Source: an uncultured Eubacteriales bacterium (GTDB taxonomy: Bacteria; Bacillota; Clostridia; Christensenellales; CAG-138). From it: 64,000 nucleotides of DNA. Under the pieces are notes generated by a model. It was not told the origin of the DNA. It searched no databases and saw only the letters and a program-made list of their open reading frames with translations. Each line of letters begins with the position of its first letter. Within the stretch, counting starts at the first letter, position 1. The stretch spans positions 2,306,959 through 2,370,958 of the forward strand of contig OW818651.1 in the NCBI GenBank assembly GCA_942492885.1, written 5' to 3'. Of this stretch, positions 8,195-62,542 are shown piece by piece. The translations under genes and the position numbers were made by a program.

Positions 8195-8346
8195 GTGTAA
8201 GCGCGTGGTATACAAATTTGGTGCAACCACATAGTACACACATGGTGTAAGCACATGGTATACACCCAGAGTGTAAGCACATGGTATACAAATATGGTGC
8301 AACCACATAGTACACACATGGTGTAAGCACATGGTATACAGTCCAA
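8195..8346. repeat. 76-bp tandem duplication carrying four copies of a 20-bp box
   Basis: GTGTAAGC(G/A)C(G/A)TGGTATACA occurs at 8195-8214, 8245-8264, 8271-8290 and 8321-8340. The 50-bp stretches 8195-8244 and 8271-8320 are near-identical. Confidence 0.9.
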
Positions 8347-8369
8347 TGATCAGACAACCGGAGGAACAC

Positions 8370-8945
8370 ATGACGAAACAAGAAATCTTAGAGCATTCGT
8401 TGGCGCTCTTTATGAAAAAGGGTTACGAAGGCGCAAGCATGAGCGATATCGCCGCGGCAACGGGCATCAAAAAAGCATCTCTCTACGCACATTATTCCGG
8501 CAAGGAGGAAATCTTCTCCGCCGTATTCACAAGCGTGGTGGAGGAATACCGCGAAACCATTCAATCCCTCACCCTTCGGCGGGACGAGGAGAGCGCCCTC
8601 ACGCGCTTGGAGCGGATGTTTCGCGCGTTTCTGCGCTTTTGCCACAACAACGCGAGGATGTACTTCTGGGATCGCTACTTCTATTTTCCGCCGGACTTCA
8701 TTCAGGAGCACATGGAGCGGGAGACGAAAGAGACGCAGGGCGAATTTGTGCTGGCCATCCGGCAGGCGATTTCGGAAGGAATCACACGCGGGGAGATCCG
8801 CAAGCAATCACTTGATAGTGCCGCGCTGAGCTATTATTACCTGATGATCGGGCTTTCGATGTCGGTCAAGCTCTATGATCGCGAGGCGCTGGAGCGGGAT
8901 ATCACGCTGGCTTGGACGGGGCTTGCGCGGGGATTGAGCAGCTAA
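8370..8945 (+). CDS. TetR/AcrR family transcriptional regulator
   Basis: N-terminal HTH ASMSDIAAATGIKKASLYAHYSGKEEIF. Start chosen at ATG 8370, five nt after GGAGG (8360-8364). The track start at 8331 lies inside the repeat. Confidence 0.85.
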   Translation: MTKQEILEHSLALFMKKGYEGASMSDIAAATGIKKASLYAHYSGKEEIFSAVFTSVVEEYRETIQSLTLRRDEESALTRLERMFRAFLRFCHNNARMYFWDRYFYFPPDFIQEHMERETKETQGEFVLAIRQAISEGITRGEIRKQSLDSAALSYYYLMIGLSMSVKLYDREALERDITLAWTGLARGLSS

Positions 8946-8966
8946 GAATAAAGGGGATTGCGTTAT

Positions 8967-9944
8967 ATGGGAAAACGAATTTTAGGAAACAGCAACATTT
9001 TCGTCAGCCCGCTTGGGCTTGGCTGCTGGGCCATCGGTGGGCCGTTTACGATGGATGGACATCAGGACGGCTGGGGTCAGGTGGATGACGCGGAGTCAAT
9101 CCGCGCCATCCGCCGCGCGGTAGACCTCGGCGTGACGCTGTTTGACACGGCGGATGCCTATGGCACGGGGCACAGCGAAGAGGTGCTCGGTAAGGCGGTC
9201 AAAAGCATGCGGCACGAGGTCGTCATCGCCACCAAGGGCGGGTTCACCTACGATCGCGACGCGCGCGCGCTCACCGGGATGGACTGGTCCCCCGCCTACA
9301 TCCGCCGCGCGCTGGAGGCGTCGCTCAAACGCCTCGGTACGGACTATGTCGATCTGTATCAGCTGCACACCGGAACGATTCCGGAGGCGGCGGTGGAGCC
9401 GGTGTTTGGCGAGATGGAGCGGCTCAAAACGGAAGGCAAGCTCCTCGCCTACGGCTGGAGCACCTATACGCGGGAGAACGTGGACACTTTTGCCGCAAAG
9501 ACGCGCGGGAGCGTGATTCAGACCAAAGCGAACCTGTTTAGCTACGACGCGGAGGCGGTCAAAGCCTGCGAACGGCACGGGTTTGCGTGCCTCAACAACA
9601 GCCCGCTGGCGATGGGGTTTCTCTCCGGCAAGTTCTCACAAGCCACGCGGTTTGAGAGCGACGACGTGCGCGCCTCTGCATTCGACTGGACGGAGTATTT
9701 TGCGGATGGCAAGCCAAAGCCCGCGTTTCTCGCCCGTATGGCGCGCGTACGGGATGTGCTCACCAGCGGCGGGCGCACCGCGGCGCAGGGCGCGCTTGCG
9801 TGGCTCTGGGCAAAGAGCGGGGTCAACATCCCGATTCCGGGGTTTAAGACGCTCGCGCAGGCGGAGGAAAACGCGCGCGCGATGGCGTTTGGCCCGCTGA
9901 ACTGGGAAGAGATGCAGCAAATCGAGGCGGCGCTCGGTGTATAA
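8967..9944 (+). CDS. aldo/keto reductase
   Basis: Motifs LFDTADAYG, VIATKGG and VDLYQLH are typical of the AKR superfamily. ATG 8967 is preceded by AAAGGGGA. Confidence 0.9.
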   Translation: MGKRILGNSNIFVSPLGLGCWAIGGPFTMDGHQDGWGQVDDAESIRAIRRAVDLGVTLFDTADAYGTGHSEEVLGKAVKSMRHEVVIATKGGFTYDRDARALTGMDWSPAYIRRALEASLKRLGTDYVDLYQLHTGTIPEAAVEPVFGEMERLKTEGKLLAYGWSTYTRENVDTFAAKTRGSVIQTKANLFSYDAEAVKACERHGFACLNNSPLAMGFLSGKFSQATRFESDDVRASAFDWTEYFADGKPKPAFLARMARVRDVLTSGGRTAAQGALAWLWAKSGVNIPIPGFKTLAQAEENARAMAFGPLNWEEMQQIEAALGV

Positions 9945-10016
9945 AAACCGCGTTCCGGTGAGGACGGCGCGAAAAACGCTTGCGCTCTCCCGCTCAAACC
10001 TCATATAATATCCCTC

Positions 10017-10763
10017 ATGAAACGAGTAATGGGTAGCATTCGCCGCGCGGACGAGCGGTATCACATGGTTGAAGACGGGGACAAGATCTGCATCGGCGTC
10101 TCCGGCGGCAAGGATTCCCTGTTGTTGATGGAGGCGATGAAGCTCTATCAGCGGTTTTCGTATACCAAGTTTGAGGTCATCGCCGTGATGCTCGACCTGG
10201 GCTTGAAGCAGCAGGATGTCTCCCGCATACACGAATATGCCGAGCGGATCGGCATCGACTTCGAAGTCGTCTATACCGACATCGGCAAGGTCGTGTTTGA
10301 ATACCGCGAGGAGAGAAGCCCCTGCGCCCTGTGCGCAAAGCTCCGCCGCGGTGCGCTGAACAACTACGCGGTCGACCACGGTTGCAACAAGGTAGCGCTG
10401 GGGCATAACCGCGACGACGTGATGCAAACGTTCTTTATGAGCATGCTTTACGAGGGCAGAATCAGCACATTTGCGCCCGTGACCTATCTTTCCCGCAAGG
10501 ATGTGACGGTCATCCGCCCGCTGATCTTCCTGCCGGAGAAGCACGCGCTCTCCATCGCCCGCGCGCACGAGCTGCCGATTTTGCCGCCGAACTGCGACAT
10601 CGCCGGACACACCAAGCGCGAGGAGGCAAAAAACCTCGTAAAGCACATCACAAAACTCGTGCCGGACTTTGAGGAGAAGTTCATGCACGCGCTCTCCACC
10701 ACCGAGACCTATGGATTGTGGGATCGGTTAAGACTGAAAGGCGACGAGAGTCATAAACGATAA
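10017..10763 (+). CDS. PP-loop ATPase, TtcA-like tRNA thiolation family
   Basis: PP-loop SGGKDS. CALCAKLRRG cysteine motif and a second PNCD cysteine. 248 aa. Confidence 0.75.
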   Translation: MKRVMGSIRRADERYHMVEDGDKICIGVSGGKDSLLLMEAMKLYQRFSYTKFEVIAVMLDLGLKQQDVSRIHEYAERIGIDFEVVYTDIGKVVFEYREERSPCALCAKLRRGALNNYAVDHGCNKVALGHNRDDVMQTFFMSMLYEGRISTFAPVTYLSRKDVTVIRPLIFLPEKHALSIARAHELPILPPNCDIAGHTKREEAKNLVKHITKLVPDFEEKFMHALSTTETYGLWDRLRLKGDESHKR

Positions 10764-10770
10764 ACAAAAT

Positions 10771-10796
10771 GCGCCCTAAGAAGGGCGCTTTTTTTT
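10771..10796 (+). terminator. Rho-independent terminator
   Basis: GCGCCCT (10771-10777) / loop AAGA / AGGGCGC (10782-10788), followed by T8. Confidence 0.8.
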
Positions 10797-10937
10797 ATGC
10801 CGCCAACCGCAAAAAGAACTAGGTATTCGTTTCATTCGAGTTGTTGAGTATAAAATATGATGCTATACTATTATTGATGGTTTTCGAGTGTTCATAAGAA
10901 TGAAATTCAAGACTACATTTTTCAATGGAGGTGTAAT

Positions 10938-11639
10938 TTGTTGGAACTACATAGATACATTCCATTTGAAAGTTTTGTTGATATTGTCCAGAGTAAATCT
11001 CTAAAATTTGTATATCCTCCTGTTGCGTGGGAGGACACATATGAGGGGTTTGCTTACCGCGCAATGCAGACAGTATTGGGCAGAGAAAAAATTTTCAAGA
11101 TACTAATTACCAGAGGCGTTGATAAAGAACATGCCGGTTTTTTCCTGCGCGATGGCTTGTTGAGTATTCTTCGTTATCAATGCTGGACAAAGGCAAAAGA
11201 TAATATCGCCATGTGGAGCATATACTCGTTTTCGTCAAAAACAATCATGATCACTACTACAACTGAAAAACTAGAGGAGTTAACAATTAATGGAGTAAAC
11301 AATGTTCGGTTTATGCCTGTAAATTATGTGCAGAGCCATAGTCTTGAAGATGAACTTGTTGCATTCACTCCGACGACATTCACATCAAATCTGATTTTTC
11401 AAAGCAAGCGAAATGAATTTATGCACGAGGAAGAGATAAGAGCTTTTATTGATACAGCTGGAATTATAGATAAGAAAACTCCGCTTAAGGTTCCAATTCC
11501 AAGCGTGCAAGATTTTATAGTCAACGTTTTAGTACATCCAAGTGCTCCGTTATGGTATGTAGGTGTTGTTGGAGAATTTTGTAGATTAAATGGCATCAAT
11601 TTTTCTGGTCAATCGAAATTATATAAATTTGAGTGTTAA
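10938..11639 (+). CDS. DUF2971-like protein in an AT-rich singleton insertion
   Basis: N-terminal LHRYIPFESFVDIVQSKSLKFVYP...WEDTYEG, central MWSIYS, and C-terminal KRNEFMHEEEIR match the motif order I associate with DUF2971. GGAGG RBS lies 6 nt before the TTG start. Composition is AT-rich. Confidence 0.6.
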   Translation: MLELHRYIPFESFVDIVQSKSLKFVYPPVAWEDTYEGFAYRAMQTVLGREKIFKILITRGVDKEHAGFFLRDGLLSILRYQCWTKAKDNIAMWSIYSFSSKTIMITTTTEKLEELTINGVNNVRFMPVNYVQSHSLEDELVAFTPTTFTSNLIFQSKRNEFMHEEEIRAFIDTAGIIDKKTPLKVPIPSVQDFIVNVLVHPSAPLWYVGVVGEFCRLNGINFSGQSKLYKFEC

Positions 11640-57897: not shown

Positions 57898-58051
57898 TAG
57901 TTTGAGATATGAAATAAGCGCGTCGGTCGTGTGATCGGCGCGCTATTGTTTGTTCTAATATTTACAAGTTTATGAATGTACAAAAAAACTATTTGAAATT
58001 ACACGTTGAAATGGTAGTATGTTCTTGTATGTTTAAATAGGAGGGTTAGTT

Positions 58052-58795
58052 ATGAATCAACCCCTTGTTATTACTGACGAATCTTATCAAATTGCCTGGG
58101 CAAAAGCTATAATCGAGTTGAAGAGAAATAATTGGGACATATGGAACTTGGTAGTTCAAATTAAGAATCCGACCCTAAATGACGATCGAATCACTGGCAT
58201 TTTGTGTGAGTTTGCTGGAACACACGGGTTAATTACTCCTGAACATGTAGAACATACGATTTTTCCAACTCGGTTGTATCGAAAATACCCTGAAAAGGCA
58301 TTGCTTTACAGAGCATATAAGAAGTATTTTACGCTGACGAGAAAAATGGATCACAGTGGGTGGGGCACATACTTTCAAAGTATGATTCATTATCCGACTG
58401 AAAATGGATACATTGATCAGTTGGGTAATATTATTGAGAAAATCAATGAAAGGCCAATTACATATAAAACTGCATATGTCATGCTAATACCTGAACCAGA
58501 GAGAGATCGTAATAAGATAATGGCAGCTCCGTGCCTGAACTATGTTGCCCTGCAACTTGAGAATGAAGAAGAAGCAAGGCACGGAAGACAAATAAGTTTA
58601 CTAGCAGTATATCGAAATCACGATTTTATGCATCGTGCATTTGGCAATTATCTTGGTCTATGTAGTCTCCTGAAATATATATGTGCGGAGACTGATTCTA
58701 CAATCGGTTGTATCACTTGTATCTCTTCGCATGCGTTTGTTGAGAATCAAAAAAACGAGCTAATAGCTATAGCAAGAGAGATTACCAGAGGATAA
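58052..58795 (+). CDS. thymidylate-synthase-fold (ThyA/dCMP-hydroxymethylase-like) enzyme
   Basis: YIDQLGNIIEKINERP aligns with ThyA HIDQITTVLNQLKNDP. MAAPCLNYVALQL aligns with LAPCHAFFQFYV (catalytic Cys). LLAVYRNHDFMHRAFGNYLGLCSLLKYICAE aligns with [30 protein letters not shown]. The N-terminal part is divergent. AGGAGGG RBS. Confidence 0.6.
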   Translation: MNQPLVITDESYQIAWAKAIIELKRNNWDIWNLVVQIKNPTLNDDRITGILCEFAGTHGLITPEHVEHTIFPTRLYRKYPEKALLYRAYKKYFTLTRKMDHSGWGTYFQSMIHYPTENGYIDQLGNIIEKINERPITYKTAYVMLIPEPERDRNKIMAAPCLNYVALQLENEEEARHGRQISLLAVYRNHDFMHRAFGNYLGLCSLLKYICAETDSTIGCITCISSHAFVENQKNELIAIAREITRG

Positions 58796-58796
58796 A

Positions 58797-59837
58797 ATGG
58801 AAAATTATACTTTAAGAGAATTAAAAATAGAGGTTACACATCGATGCCCGTTAGCTTGCGTTCATTGCTCCAGTAATGCTCATTCGGAAAACACAAGAGA
58901 AATGCCGTATGATAAGTGCCTTGAAATAATTCATAATGCACATCAAATGGGTGTTAAAGAAATTGCTTTTTCTGGTGGAGAGCCTTTATGTTGGAACGGA
59001 ATCGTAGAAGCTGTGAAGGTTGCACATGATATGGGCATCAAAACAGTGATGTACTCTTCGGGTAATGCAAATAATGCCAAAGCAATCTTTGAAGAACTAA
59101 CCAAAGCAGGATTACAAAAAATCGTGTTTAGCATATATTCGTGCGATGAGGCGGAGCACAATAAAATAACCCGAATTGCAGATAGCTTTCAAAATACTAT
59201 TAGTGCAATCGAATGCGTTAAGAACTTAGGAATACAGCCGGAAGTTCATTTTGTGGCATTAGCAAGTAACTATAAAAGCATAGAGAAGTTAGTGTACTAT
59301 CTTAAATCAATTGGAGTGGATCGTACAAGCATATTAAGATTTGTCCCGCAAGGTAGAGGAAGATTGATTCATAAGCAAGGAGTTATGACAAAGAAGCAAA
59401 GCCTTGAGTTGTCCCGAATGATAAAAAGACTTTGGGAGAAAGGATTCGACATTAGGACAGGTTCACCTTATAATGTTTTACTGATTAATGAAGAACCCAA
59501 ATGCATGGCAGCAAAAGATAGAATGATAATATCACCAGATTTGGATGTCTTTCCTTGCGATGCGTTTAAGCAAATTACAGCAGAGCAAATTACGACCCCA
59601 GTGAAGTTTTCAAACTTAGGCGAGGCTACACTACAAGAGTGCTGGGATAATTCATCTTACTTTCGAGAGGTACGGAAAGCTCTTAGCGAAATCACAGAAC
59701 CACCGTGCGTAAGCTGTGGAGCAAATAAAAAATGTCTTTCGGGCTGTCTGGCGCAAAAGTTTTTGGAGTATAATACACTATACAAGAATCCTGACCCTGC
59801 TTGTCTGCTTGGAGGAGATTGTGGTGGTATACAGTAA
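58797..59837 (+). CDS. radical SAM enzyme with C-terminal SPASM domain
   Basis: CPLACVHC (CX3CX2C). C-terminal CVSCGANKKCLSGC (CX2CX5CX3C) plus upstream Cys residues. Starts 1 nt after the stop of the previous gene. Confidence 0.85.
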   Translation: MENYTLRELKIEVTHRCPLACVHCSSNAHSENTREMPYDKCLEIIHNAHQMGVKEIAFSGGEPLCWNGIVEAVKVAHDMGIKTVMYSSGNANNAKAIFEELTKAGLQKIVFSIYSCDEAEHNKITRIADSFQNTISAIECVKNLGIQPEVHFVALASNYKSIEKLVYYLKSIGVDRTSILRFVPQGRGRLIHKQGVMTKKQSLELSRMIKRLWEKGFDIRTGSPYNVLLINEEPKCMAAKDRMIISPDLDVFPCDAFKQITAEQITTPVKFSNLGEATLQECWDNSSYFREVRKALSEITEPPCVSCGANKKCLSGCLAQKFLEYNTLYKNPDPACLLGGDCGGIQ

Positions 59838-61017
59838 AACAGCTTTCTTCAACGATTTTACATCTTCAGTGCAGAGGTGTAATCTTTGCGAAAGAATGTG
59901 TGATAGAAAAAAAGTATTATCTTCAGTTAATGGCAACATTAATTCTAAAGTCATGTTCATTGCAGAAGCTCCTGGACGGTTAGGCGCGGAATGCACAGGA
60001 ATACCATTGTATGGAGACAGAACTGGCGAGAATTTCGAAACGCTACTTGCCAATATAGGATGGAGCAGAGATGATGTCTTCATAACCAACGCAATCTTGT
60101 GTAATCCGCAAGATGAAGATGGAAATAATGCAACACCAACTGCCAAGGAAATATCAAATTGTAGCTATTTTCTATCGATGACGATCGAACTTATTAATCC
60201 CGAAATCGTTGTTACTTTGGGTATCAAAGCACTTGAAGCTATTAAGTATATCGATCAGCACGACTATACTTTACGGGAAAGCGTTGCAAGCTTGCAGCCT
60301 TGGAACAAGAGATTCCTATACCCTTTATACCATATGAGTCCCCGTGCAGCTATTCATAGGTCAATGATTCAACAACGTGCTGATTTCATTAAGTTGTCGC
60401 ATGCTGTATCACCCACCGAAGGTATCAAGAAGAAAGCAACCTCAACACCCAAACGGAGTGCAAGCCTAAATACAAATGTACGATTATTAGATATGATAGC
60501 AACTATTGTTGCGGAAGCGAAATTAGTTTCCTTTTTTAAGCTTACTAAGCTGCTTTATCTAATTGATCTTAAATATTTACAGCAATTTGGAGAGTCAATT
60601 TCTGGTGGTATTTATTTAAGAATGCAGGAAGGTCCGTGGATTCCATCTTTAAAGAATATTATCAATGATTATAATCATGAGTTGTTTGAGCTGAATTTTG
60701 TTGCAAGAAAACCGATTCTTTGCACAATAGATAATTTCTATGAAACAGGTCTGAGCGAAGTTGAAAGCGAATTTATTCTGGATATAGTTAGAACGTATTC
60801 AACAGTTGACGACGCAGGAATGAAGCTTGTTGTTTATCATACGAAACCAATGAAATATATTCTAAATGCTGAGAGAGAACGTCGGAACATGTTGAAAACC
60901 CCAGTTCTATATAAAAACTGTACTGTGATTGACATTGATCAGAGAAACAATAATACGAGCGTTGCACCCCCCACTCCACGACCCGTAGACCCCACCACCA
61001 CCTCCACTGATGTATAA
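59821..61017 (+). CDS. family-4-UDG-like domain fused to Panacea/DUF4065 domain
   Basis: N-terminal half: CNLCERMC, MFIAEAPG (GEAPG-type motif A), FITNAILCNP, YHMSPRA (HPS-type motif B). C-terminal half: FFKLTKLLYLIDLKYLQQFGESISGGIYLRMQEGPWIP is typical of DUF4065/SocA-like. GTG start 59821 follows GGAGG (59811-59815) and overlaps the upstream stop by 17 nt. The last 17 codons lie in the 85-bp repeat. Confidence 0.6.
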   Translation: MVVYSKTAFFNDFTSSVQRCNLCERMCDRKKVLSSVNGNINSKVMFIAEAPGRLGAECTGIPLYGDRTGENFETLLANIGWSRDDVFITNAILCNPQDEDGNNATPTAKEISNCSYFLSMTIELINPEIVVTLGIKALEAIKYIDQHDYTLRESVASLQPWNKRFLYPLYHMSPRAAIHRSMIQQRADFIKLSHAVSPTEGIKKKATSTPKRSASLNTNVRLLDMIATIVAEAKLVSFFKLTKLLYLIDLKYLQQFGESISGGIYLRMQEGPWIPSLKNIINDYNHELFELNFVARKPILCTIDNFYETGLSEVESEFILDIVRTYSTVDDAGMKLVVYHTKPMKYILNAERERRNMLKTPVLYKNCTVIDIDQRNNNTSVAPPTPRPVDPTTTSTDV

Positions 61018-61051
61018 TATCCTTGTCGACGCACGCACATGAAAAATCCCC
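60967..61051. repeat. 85-bp direct repeat, copy 1
   Basis: CCCCCCACTCCACGACCCGTAGACCCCACCACCACCTCCACTGATGTATAATATCCTTGTCGACGCACGCACATGAAAAATCCCC. GC-rich relative to its surroundings. Confidence 0.9.
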
Positions 61052-61216
61052 ATAAGAATGCATGCCAAAGTAACGAACCGAGACGCGGGATAAGTCGAAA
61101 GTTATTAACGTTTAAAGCTTTGAAAACGCATGAAAAAGGAGCAACCTTTCGATTGCTCCCAGAGGGTGCTAATCAGCTGTTTGTTTTGTGTTACAACGAT
61201 GCACTCCTTAGTATGT

Positions 61217-61780
61217 TTACTTCTTATATCCGCACTTGGGACATGCGCCGTTTTCGTTTAGAGCAATACCGCACAACGGGCAGCGGTCAATGGCGTTGTG
61301 AGTTTCGAATACTTCGGAAGCCGCGTTAACGCCGCTTGTGAAGGTCAGCTTGGCAATGTTCAGCTTGTCCTTCAGCAAATCATACACAATCTTGATCATG
61401 CCTTCAACGGTCATAGTCTCTTTGGTTACAACCAAACGGCATTCCGGATATGCGGTTGCAAGCGCGGTTTTGAAGGCGGGTCCCTTCATTTTGTTGGTCG
61501 GGGCACCATCTTTAATCCCCTGCTTCTCATAAACATCGAGGATCGCAGGTAACAGGGGATCATCTTCGCGGAGGATCAGCGCATGGTCGAAGTTTCTCAG
61601 CACATCCCACGCGGTCTTCTGAATTTCATTGCAGGGGAAAACCATGTTGACACCGGTATTGACGGAATCTTCCACCTCGATCGTCAGAATGCCGGTGTGC
61701 CCATGTAAGTACTGTGCTTCGCCTTTGAATCCATAGAATCTATGCGCGTACTGTAGGTCTAGCGTTGTGATACTTCTCAT
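61217..61780 (-). CDS. 6-pyruvoyl-tetrahydropterin synthase / QueD-fold protein with C-terminal zinc ribbon
   Basis: YAHRFYGFKGEAQYLHGHTGILTIEVE...NFDHALIL matches the PTPS/QueD pattern (aaH...c..lHGH.y.v.v...lDH..L). An appended CPLCG...CPKCG follows. AGGAG RBS. Confidence 0.7.
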   Translation of the reverse strand: MRSITTLDLQYAHRFYGFKGEAQYLHGHTGILTIEVEDSVNTGVNMVFPCNEIQKTAWDVLRNFDHALILREDDPLLPAILDVYEKQGIKDGAPTNKMKGPAFKTALATAYPECRLVVTKETMTVEGMIKIVYDLLKDKLNIAKLTFTSGVNAASEVFETHNAIDRCPLCGIALNENGACPKCGYKK

Positions 61781-61861
61781 AGCTTTTCTCCTTATATATT
61801 ATTTACGGGGTTATTCCATGCTCCCGTATACGCATCGATCATACTGATCCGGAATTAGTTG

Positions 61862-62257
61862 TCATGATTCCTTCGAGTTACGTTCGCATTCCGAGCAGAT
61901 ACCTTTAAAAACAATATCATGTCCAGTAAATGAAAAGCCGTGTGTATCTTTGATCGTTTTCTCCAAATCCGCCTTATATTCCATGTCCACATCAAAAACA
62001 CGGCCACACTTGACACACTTGGCATGGTAATGATTGCTGCAGATATGGTCAAATCGATCAGCACTACCGGGGAACTCTCGTTTCCGAATTTCGCCTAAGT
62101 CGGATAACCGCTGCAGATTCCGATACACGGTTCCTCTGCTGATATGTGGGTGTTCTTTTACGATTGCACTATATACCTCGTCTGCAGTCGCGTGGCAACT
62201 CAATTTGTTGACAGCCTCAAGTACCAAAGCGCATTGAATCGTATTTCGTCTAATCAT
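61862..62257 (-). CDS. Fur family transcriptional regulator
   Basis: 131 aa. HTH region ISRGTVYRNL, HHAKCVKCG ... CSEC metal sites. Confidence 0.85.
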   Translation of the reverse strand: MIRRNTIQCALVLEAVNKLSCHATADEVYSAIVKEHPHISRGTVYRNLQRLSDLGEIRKREFPGSADRFDHICSNHYHAKCVKCGRVFDVDMEYKADLEKTIKDTHGFSFTGHDIVFKGICSECERNSKES

Positions 62258-62458
62258 ACAGCCATCCTAGTACAGTATAGAATCTTTATTAGTATAATAT
62301 CTCAATAAGGACAATATGTCAATCTTTCATTCGAATCTGTAAAGCGCACACTCAGTTTTCCGCAAATCTCTCCAATGGCAGCAACTAAGAATTCAGGAAA
62401 ATTCTGCGTTCGCGATGCATCCCTTGATGTTTTGAAAAACGAAAAGTGAGAAAACGCT

Positions 62459-62542
62459 CCCCCACTCCACGACCCGTAGACCCCACCACCCCCTCCACTG
62501 ATGTATAATACCCTTGTCGGCGCACGCACATGAAAAATCCCC
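62459..62542. repeat. 85-bp direct repeat, copy 2
   Basis: Same sequence as 60967-61051 with three substitutions and a one-base length difference in the leading C-run. Contains a TATAAT box and lies just upstream of the GIY-YIG gene. Confidence 0.9.

Follow-up and report, generated by a model that had tools for sequence, protein, structure and literature searches.

What does a DNA glycosylase do in one polypeptide with an antitoxin-type domain? The question is raised by an open reading frame (ORF) of an uncultured Eubacteriales bacterium (Christensenellales, CAG-138), located at 59821–61017 on the + strand of a 64,000-nucleotide stretch of contig OW818651.1 (positions 2,306,959 to 2,370,958; the whole stretch is called the window here, and coordinates are those of the window unless another locus is named). 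The original prediction for this ORF described an unusual fusion of a 4Fe-4S-type uracil-DNA glycosylase (UDG)-like domain to a Panacea (DUF4065) domain, and proposed either a self-neutralised toxin or a sensor-effector arrangement. Taking the gene alone proved incomplete: the fusion is the third gene of a conserved trio, preceded by genes for a thymidylate synthase (TS)-fold protein and a radical S-adenosylmethionine (SAM) enzyme. Fusion and trio alike are conserved, evolve under purifying selection, and have spread horizontally. As to function, we give an even chance to the reading that the trio is a horizontally mobile conflict or anti-phage cassette built around a non-canonical uracil-type pyrimidine, with a DNA-acting glycosylase and with the Panacea half as a tethered protein-binding regulator.

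The fusion gene is open from a GTG at 59821 to a TAA at 61015–61017 and encodes 398 residues. The GTG stands 4–5 nt behind a Shine-Dalgarno sequence (GGAGGAG) and overlaps the last 17 nt of the preceding radical-SAM gene, which makes it the likely start; the closest relatives are called from the identical position, and the fusion is translationally coupled within the cassette. Pfam assigns residues 38–181 to the UDG family (E = 1.9e-25; 90 bits against a cut-off of 24.3) and residues 241–330 to SocA_Panacea (PF13274; E = 7.3e-10; 40.2 bits against a gathering cut-off of 25.7), the latter match covering profile positions 1–98 of 113; the genome has no other PF13274 match. An AlphaFold model that drew on 22 diverse homologues (predicted local distance difference test, pLDDT, 80; predicted template-modelling score, pTM, 0.70) contains two folded domains separated by a disordered linker and followed by a disordered tail. 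The first is the UDG-like iron-sulphur glycosylase domain (59821–60435, + strand; residues 1–205), recognised by Pfam, NCBIfam, alignment, and Foldseek. The linker (60436–60471, + strand; residues 206–217) is rich in Lys, Ser, and Thr, its alignment columns are variable, and pLDDT falls below 50 for residues 206–216. The second domain is Panacea-like with a family-specific C-terminal extension (60472–60942, + strand; residues 218–374), and is modelled at pLDDT 83–97 over most of its length. The tail and stop (60943–61017, + strand; residues 375–398) have a pLDDT of ~32, and residues 383–398 with the stop come from an 84-bp element that is discussed below. Pfam, the structure model, and the alignment of motifs to solved family-4 UDGs thus bear out the two-domain architecture.

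Is such a fusion as unusual as it first seemed? A search of 5.8 billion proteins returned 779 homologues, and the best 120 listed all combine UDG and Panacea in 342–406 aa. The fusion is therefore rare locally, and globally it is a large conserved family. In 24 other species of the genus that were searched, no fused orthologue was found, only canonical UDG4 matches at ~30% identity. An assembly or annotation artefact is out, as the identical gene and junction are present in three independent metagenome assemblies and hundreds of homologues are full-length. Equally out, for the fused clade, is the possibility that the two halves are normally separate genes: the single split case (L057) is a frameshifted, fragmentary contig of 1.8 kb. 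The UDG half does occur alone in other clades. In comparison with the closest carrier of the cassette (locus L003), the ratio of nonsynonymous to synonymous substitution rates (dN/dS) comes to 0.04 over the UDG half and 0.08 over the Panacea half.

The three-gene cassette and its spread

Gene order was compared in 80 loci from species-representative genomes, 31 of them with the fused form. The order TS-fold gene, radical-SAM gene, fusion gene holds in 27 of the 31. Two of the four exceptions (L031 and L057) are cut by contig ends, and the other two, from Mucilaginibacter (L058 and L059), have MazG and MazG_C instead of a radical-SAM gene, of which none lies within 10 kb at E ≤ 1e-3. No complete fused locus is without the TS-fold gene, and the identical trio was seen in six further metagenome or genome contexts. 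Elsewhere the upstream pair encodes a protein of ~245 aa and a radical-SAM enzyme of ~340 aa, and the cassette genes usually overlap, by 1–17 nt. The three-gene operon is conserved; a toxin-antitoxin (TA) locus would have a toxin gene beside the antitoxin gene, and neither partner here is a known toxin. In the window the cassette is preceded by promoter-like sites (57993–58033, + strand), which consist of two overlapping sigma-70-like consensus matches of 9/12 each; from these sites onward the GC content falls to 37–42%.

The first cassette gene (58052–58795, + strand) encodes a 247-aa protein whose fold was seen by structure comparison only. Its AlphaFold model (pLDDT 89) is matched in Foldseek by ThyA, the CMP hydroxymethylase MilA, and the phage flavin-dependent dCMP hydroxylase 9IQU (TM-scores 0.5–0.65). 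The protein has no Pfam match at E ≤ 0.01, and a family profile run against PDB sequences gave nothing useful; TIGR03283 matches it with E = 2.5e-17 and 63.1 bits, under the cut-off of 174.55, and two relatives (P0127 and P0128) pass PF00303 with 28.9 and 24.9 against a cut-off of 24.3. Within the family, P-C161-L-N (with the catalytic Cys), Y-R188-N-H, and G-N199-Y are invariant, and S-S-H227-A is nearly so. R188 and N199 have the spacing of the phosphate-binding R166 and the base-reading N177 of E. coli ThyA; judging by the Asn, the substrate would be of the uracil type and not of the cytosine type.

The second gene (58797–59837, + strand) encodes a radical SAM/SPASM enzyme of 346 aa, identified as such by Pfam (Radical_SAM, 7.4e-21; SPASM, 9.4e-7), that reaches no curated NCBIfam cut-off. 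The nearest solved proteins are PqqE (6C8V) and then the cytosylglucuronate decarboxylase BlsE (7VOB), whose model TIGR04466 matches at 4.6e-16. With BlsE as the second-best solved relative of this enzyme and MilA among the Foldseek matches of the TS-fold protein, the trio might be taken for a minimal nucleoside natural-product pathway like those of mildiomycin and blasticidin, consisting of a MilA-type TS-fold enzyme, a base-releasing glycosidase, and a later radical-SAM step of the BlsE/MilG kind. We consider this highly improbable. The BlsE likeness is restricted to the generic radical-SAM core (residues 8–176), no glycosyltransferase, peptide-ligase, export, or resistance genes accompany the trio, and the established substrate of UDG-fold enzymes is DNA and not free nucleotides.

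The distribution of the cassette is sporadic and extends over at least 12 phyla, archaea included. Carriers were found in Bacillota, Acidobacteriota, Thermodesulfobacteriota, Planctomycetota, Verrucomicrobiota, Nitrospinota, Bdellovibrionota, Bacteroidota, Zixibacteria, and Sumerlaeota, and in archaeal metagenome-assembled genomes (MAGs). Fusions from Bathyarchaeia, Terriglobia, and Smithella are nearly identical (<0.1 changes per site on the tree). Within the phylum of the present genome, the cassette occurs in 2 of 400 sampled genomes (0.5%), and here it forms an island of 37–41% GC (38% overall) in a genome of ~57% GC. Sporadic spread, near-identical sequences across domains, and foreign GC together indicate a horizontally moving accessory element. 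A phage or plasmid origin found no support in searches of INPHARED, PLSDB, and IMG/VR. The neighbours at other loci include helicase and PLD-nuclease genes (Desulfitobacterium), Dcm-Vsr with a type I methylase, a large serine recombinase, and an integrase fragment, and are suggestive of defence or mobility.

The cassette is itself a mosaic. Relative to L003, the flanks are 72–85% identical and the radical-SAM and fusion genes 92–99%, whereas the TS-fold gene with its promoter (57950–58830) reaches only 51–67% (~60% at the protein level); the breakpoint falls close to where the radical-SAM gene begins. This sharp drop implies that the TS-fold module was swapped in an otherwise recently shared cassette.

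The two halves of the fusion and what they might do

Among the 22 diverse family members, C20-x2-C23, A48-E-A-P-G52, L93-C94-N-P96, and H171-M-S-P174 of the glycosylase half are invariant or nearly so. All of the landmarks first read from the gene (CxxC, AEAPG, ILCNP, HMSP, and GPW of the DUF4065 core) are therefore present and conserved. The [4Fe-4S] ligands C20, C23, C94, and C114 align with the cysteines of the UDGs TM0511, Tth (T. thermophilus), and Sto (S. tokodaii), and are invariant in the 22 members; the motif-A Glu (E49 of xEAPG) is kept in the same alignment, and H171 aligns with the motif-B His of Tth 'FPMFH' and Sto 'PTYH'. At the level of sequence, the glycosylase half keeps every catalytic and cluster-binding landmark of family 4. 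In Foldseek, the N-terminal half matches 1L9G (E = 6.9e-10; target TM-score 0.82), 1UI1 (0.80), and 4ZBY (0.79), with UdgX and TDG matched more weakly. The fold is thus that of the family-4 UDGs, or UdgA (TM0511, 1L9G; T. thermophilus, 1UI0; S. tokodaii, 4ZBY; target TM-scores 0.76–0.82).

However, the fusion glycosylase departs from these enzymes in several respects. Identity is only 24–27%, motif A begins with Ala instead of Gly, PLYGD takes the place of PFVG, with the stacking Phe replaced by an invariant Leu, and ILCNPQDExGNN takes the place of VKCRPP, amounting to a 4-residue insertion after LCNP. These motif differences are constant across the fusion family. On the tree, the fusion glycosylase forms a long separate branch relative to family-4 UDGs, and the protein has an extra C-terminal Panacea-type region of 190 aa. 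Scores fall below the curated NCBIfam cut-offs (TIGR00758, 82.8 against 125.3 bits; NF040953, 88.4 against 250). Judged from its sequence, the glycosylase half is a distinct subfamily and not a family-4 equivalog. The KRRIH loop of UdgX is not present, the aligned region being QDEDGNN, and the UdgX model TIGR03914 gives 55.5 bits against a cut-off of 189.95.

The same subfamily is also found without a Panacea half. Stand-alone members number 49 genes, are ~50% identical, and come mostly from Chloroflexota, Acidobacteriota, and Gemmatimonadota. Where an alignment column is conserved to 90% or more among the fused forms, the stand-alone forms almost always share its residue, all catalytic and cluster motifs included; the AEAPGRLGA stretch was used to find the stand-alone genes, so its invariance is by construction, which is not the case for the other motifs. 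In 36 of the 47 stand-alone sequences compared, neither a radical-SAM nor a TS-fold partner lies nearby. Stand-alone glycosylases with the same motifs and mostly without partners imply that an enzyme of such specificity is not intrinsically lethal.

Other members of the subfamily belong to variant cassettes. Six Acidobacterial loci comprise an M78 (ImmA/IrrE) peptidase, the TS-fold protein, the radical-SAM enzyme, the UDG, and a membrane-anchored protein of dCTP-deaminase fold; four loci comprise a dCTP-deaminase-fold protein, the radical-SAM enzyme, and the UDG; and two comprise the radical-SAM enzyme, the UDG, and a protein of 460–470 aa (L060, 4682–6067; L086, 3850–5259). In these variant cassettes, pyrimidine (deoxy)nucleotides are the substrates of every recognisable partner, which speaks for a logic of pyrimidine chemistry. 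The M78 peptidase gene lies directly 5′ of the TS-fold gene in 6/6 Panacea-less Acidobacterial TS-fold loci and in no fused locus. That the TS-fold gene is accompanied by either a Panacea fusion or an M78 peptidase suggests that the regulator-type module serves the TS-fold enzyme.

Some further features of the variants were recorded. The Acidobacteriota variant loci are L061, L063, L064, L066, L070, L077, L093, L096, L065, and L083, and their dCTP-deaminase-fold protein has a C-terminal hydrophobic segment. The 460–470-aa protein shows by eye an HD-like H...HD pattern and has no Pfam match; its hosts in L060 and L086 are a Dehalococcoidia MAG and a Promethearchaeota MAG, whose UDGs are sisters on the tree. 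In the two Mucilaginibacter loci (~8336–11098), MazG with MazG_C is found together with the TS-fold protein and UDG::Panacea.

Would a DNA repair or modification operon without a conflict role account for these arrangements? Such an operon would use its radical-SAM enzyme and its glycosylase to repair or install a pyrimidine lesion or mark, and the Panacea-like half would merely bind a partner or DNA. The pairing of a radical-SAM enzyme with a UDG recurs in many lineages, and an analogy can be drawn with spore-photoproduct lyase or with the radical-SAM and UdgX-like pairs of TIGR03916 and TIGR03915, which we take to be the NCBIfam 'putative DNA modification/repair radical SAM protein' and UdgX-family pairs. 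The TIGR03916 and TIGR03915-03914 pairs likewise couple a radical-SAM gene to a family-4-like UDG gene, but in the cassette the radical-SAM enzyme belongs to the SPASM type, and its 25 best NCBIfam hits listed do not include TIGR03916. A housekeeping repair enzyme would also fit the subfamily's occurrence alone, in seemingly vertical synteny, in Chloroflexota; ordinary neighbours, if only at some loci, and the great divergence of the Panacea half point the same way. A prevalence of 0.5% in the phylum, transfer between domains, foreign GC, and a hotspot in common with an Abi gene are, however, a poor match for a housekeeping role. The ImmA-type peptidase, Panacea, the dCTP-deaminase-fold protein, and MazG_C, with which the glycosylase is associated, are typical components of conflict systems, and the TS-fold gene was exchanged for a divergent allele between the two closest carriers. 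Overall, a plain repair operon seems unlikely.

The Panacea half has its own conserved positions. FK.TKL..L.D, LR.Q.GPW.P.L, K335, Y339, T341, P343-M344, E351, and P361 are invariant in the 22 members; KLTKLLYLID is invariant or almost so, and G271-P272-W273 is among the invariant residues. As an antitoxin domain Panacea has been validated: it binds many unrelated toxins directly and so neutralises them, and the GPV motif is critical for neutralisation by PanA (Kurata et al. 2022; PMC8832971). The signature G-P-(V/W) is common to PanA/SocA antitoxins and the fusion, with Val changed to Trp in the latter, which contains a complete PanA-sized unit of ~155 aa. PanA proteins are stand-alone or carry HTH or PAD1 N-termini, and lie beside a toxin gene (PMC8832971). 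Unlike PanA, the Panacea domain of the fusion has a conserved extra C-terminal segment (residues 331–374) and sits behind an enzyme; the Panacea paper mentions neither a glycosylase nor any such fusion (PMC8832971). The half is highly divergent: in a search of 1.8 billion representatives only 89 proteins match it at E ≤ 1e-3, and the 33 that do so at E ≤ 1e-10 are almost all UDG fusions or their N-terminally truncated fragments. Ordinary PanAs were not retrieved by phmmer with this half as the query, and the 50 best Foldseek matches shown for it are all UDG-superfamily glycosylases.

An antitoxin domain in this position brings back the self-neutralised toxin, in which the UDG-like domain would be held inactive in cis by Panacea and released by a trigger, in the way of CapRel and other fused toxin-antitoxins, with the upstream genes as accessories. 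Panacea binds many toxins (PMC8832971), and an N-terminal enzyme with a C-terminal antitoxin-type domain matches the design of fused TA sensors. The full-length pTM of 0.70 may further point to a defined mutual arrangement of the domains, and with the stacking Phe changed to an invariant Leu and a 4-residue insertion by the pocket, substrate specificity may differ. Yet an intrinsically toxic enzyme could not persist as the Panacea-less forms do, and the presence of the TS-fold gene in every complete fused locus is left unexplained. The stand-alone glycosylases, which keep the motifs at ~50% identity and mostly lack both partners, thus weaken this half of the original prediction, and we now think it quite unlikely. 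Its other half, the sensor-effector arrangement, stays tenable, with the regulated partner more likely the TS-fold enzyme than the glycosylase.

These considerations lead back to a conflict or anti-phage cassette as the preferred reading. A uracil-type (deoxy)nucleotide would be made or altered by the TS-fold enzyme, with the radical-SAM enzyme assisting it or acting after it, and the glycosylase domain would recognise the resulting base (or uracil) in DNA and excise it. Excision could either fragment heavily substituted replicating phage DNA or clear the base from host DNA. The Panacea half would be a protein-binding regulatory or neutralising module tethered to the glycosylase, and its target is more likely to be the partner enzymes, first among them the TS-fold protein, than the glycosylase domain to which it is joined. 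Such an arrangement would resemble DarG, where a DNA-cleaning domain is joined to a toxin-binding domain. A more specific version, which we consider rather unlikely, is that of a new kind of immune system: upon infection, the TS-fold and radical-SAM enzymes would make a non-canonical uracil-type deoxynucleotide, and once this is incorporated, the glycosylase would produce lethal abasic sites in the replicating phage DNA. Panacea would hold the partner off beforehand, and the variants with a dCTP-deaminase-fold protein or MazG would feed the same glycosylase.

Several observations weigh against a conflict cassette. The link between the TS-fold protein and a regulator is weak, as it comes from one Acidobacterial clade and few independent events. 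The closest relatives of the radical-SAM enzyme are peptide and cofactor maturases, and ordinary metabolic genes surround the cassette at two loci. No full-length copy was found in INPHARED, PLSDB, or IMG/VR. Neither the fusion nor the TS-fold protein is matched by a PADLOC model (PADLOC-DB v2), and the radical-SAM enzyme matches the PADLOC pVip models via its generic core only.

The cargo site and the C-terminal tail

The chromosomal site of the cassette is bounded on its left by a strong terminator-like hairpin after the BD-FAE hydrolase gene (57917–57944, + strand; a 12-pair stem followed by a T-run), which marks the left edge of the variable cargo; homology to the sister species ends at 57926–57944. 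On its right, the cassette junction is formed by copy 1 of an 84-bp element (60968–61051, + strand), recognised as a sequence repeat. The interval between terminator and element (57945–60967) is a variable-cargo hotspot in the genus. It holds the trio here, an Abi_2 abortive-infection gene in the sister species G051 (L021, 877–1548), and two unrelated genes in another species, G010 (L023, 361–1338).

The 84-bp element has two copies only in the genome. Comparison across the genus identifies copy 2 (62459–62542, + strand) as the native promoter and 5′ region of a GIY-YIG-like gene. Of 39 other species in the genus, 26 show downstream homology that starts exactly at the left edge of the element, whatever lies upstream; it follows that the element is backbone sequence, the promoter and 5′ region of that gene. 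An integron attC-like or hairpin site is out: no inverted repeat is present, the fold is no better than that of shuffles (z = +0.96), and there are just the two copies.

How did a backbone element come to encode the end of a cargo gene? The repeat begins at 60967/60968 and encodes residues 383–398 (PPTPRPVDPTTTSTDV) and the stop, the TAA of the fusion sitting within the TATAAT box of the element. The final 17 codons had been ascribed to the repeat; the origin was right, the count is 16, and the string then quoted has 18 residues. In most species the element is non-coding, and open frames through it are just 17–52 aa. In G010, an unrelated cargo gene of 223 aa, the second of the two, reads into the element at the same site and has the identical end PTPRPVDPTTTSTDV. 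The tail is absent from the wider family, whose members end 2–30 variable residues past the conserved VLYK...D segment, so that insertion cost the gene no more than a few native codons, along with its stop and any terminator. The comparison of orthologue C-termini thus bears out the idea that recombination replaced the native 3′ end: the tail is backbone-encoded read-through into the promoter of a neighbour.

Relative L003 is 95% identical, yet 8 changes separate the two over the 24 residues of the tail, with dN > dS. A conserved functional peptide is out, given these substitutions, the mostly non-coding nature of the element, and the pLDDT of ~32, and the tail is very probably functionally neutral. 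Cargo genes of a hotspot can thus lose their own stop and borrow one from the promoter of a neighbour, harmlessly.

The two 84-bp copies bracket a 1.49-kb segment (61052–62458) that contains a QueD/PTPS-like gene with a C-terminal zinc ribbon (61217–61780, − strand) and a Fur-family regulator (61862–62257, − strand). The segment is not in L003, which has a single copy of the element; this pattern would fit either a circle that was inserted through recombination at the element or a deletion that removed the DNA lying between two copies. The small gene 3′ of the element (62530/62566–62910) was read by eye as GIY-YIG-like (IGGIYAVTN...) and has no Pfam match at E ≤ 0.01. It is kept across the genus along with its 84-bp upstream element.

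Relation to known systems

No description of a UDG::Panacea cassette was found in the literature searched or in PADLOC. A study based on DefensePredictor reported a validated E. coli defence system with TS, dNMP kinase, 5-hydroxymethyldeoxyuridine (5-hmdU) kinase, and NMAD domains, and predicted a MazG/MazG-C/NMAD/UDG defence system, with MazG_C among the predicted defence domains (PMC13092281). These systems place TS-fold and UDG-fold proteins in validated or candidate immune operons, and the Mucilaginibacter variant of the cassette carries MazG and MazG_C too. Neither radical SAM nor Panacea occurs in the main text of that study, and the supplements give PF13274 for a Lamassu accessory protein only; the trio of TS, radical SAM, and UDG::Panacea is not among its systems, as far as the accessible parts of the publication go (PMC13092281).

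Should the cassette prove to be an immune or toxin-antidote system, the known repertoire would gain a DNA glycosylase paired with de novo pyrimidine modification by a TS-fold and a radical-SAM enzyme. The cassette would also provide the first Panacea domain fused to an enzyme instead of acting as a free antitoxin, and a function for a glycosylase subfamily found in at least a dozen phyla. The glycosylase with its altered pocket and the small (~245 aa) TS-fold enzyme are candidates for new substrate specificities in DNA-modification biochemistry.

The proposed logic can be compared with that of DarTG, a toxin-antitoxin and defence system. DarT ADP-ribosylates DNA, and DarG is a macrodomain protein that removes the DNA modification and binds the modifying enzyme. 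Cleaning and enzyme binding would likewise be combined in one polypeptide by the fusion. This is an analogy only: the two systems differ in that they have no homology, and the chemistry of the cassette would be modification of a pyrimidine at C5 or by a radical mechanism, together with base excision. We judge the chances to be balanced that the cassette belongs with the nucleotide-centred conflict systems and the Panacea-regulated modules.

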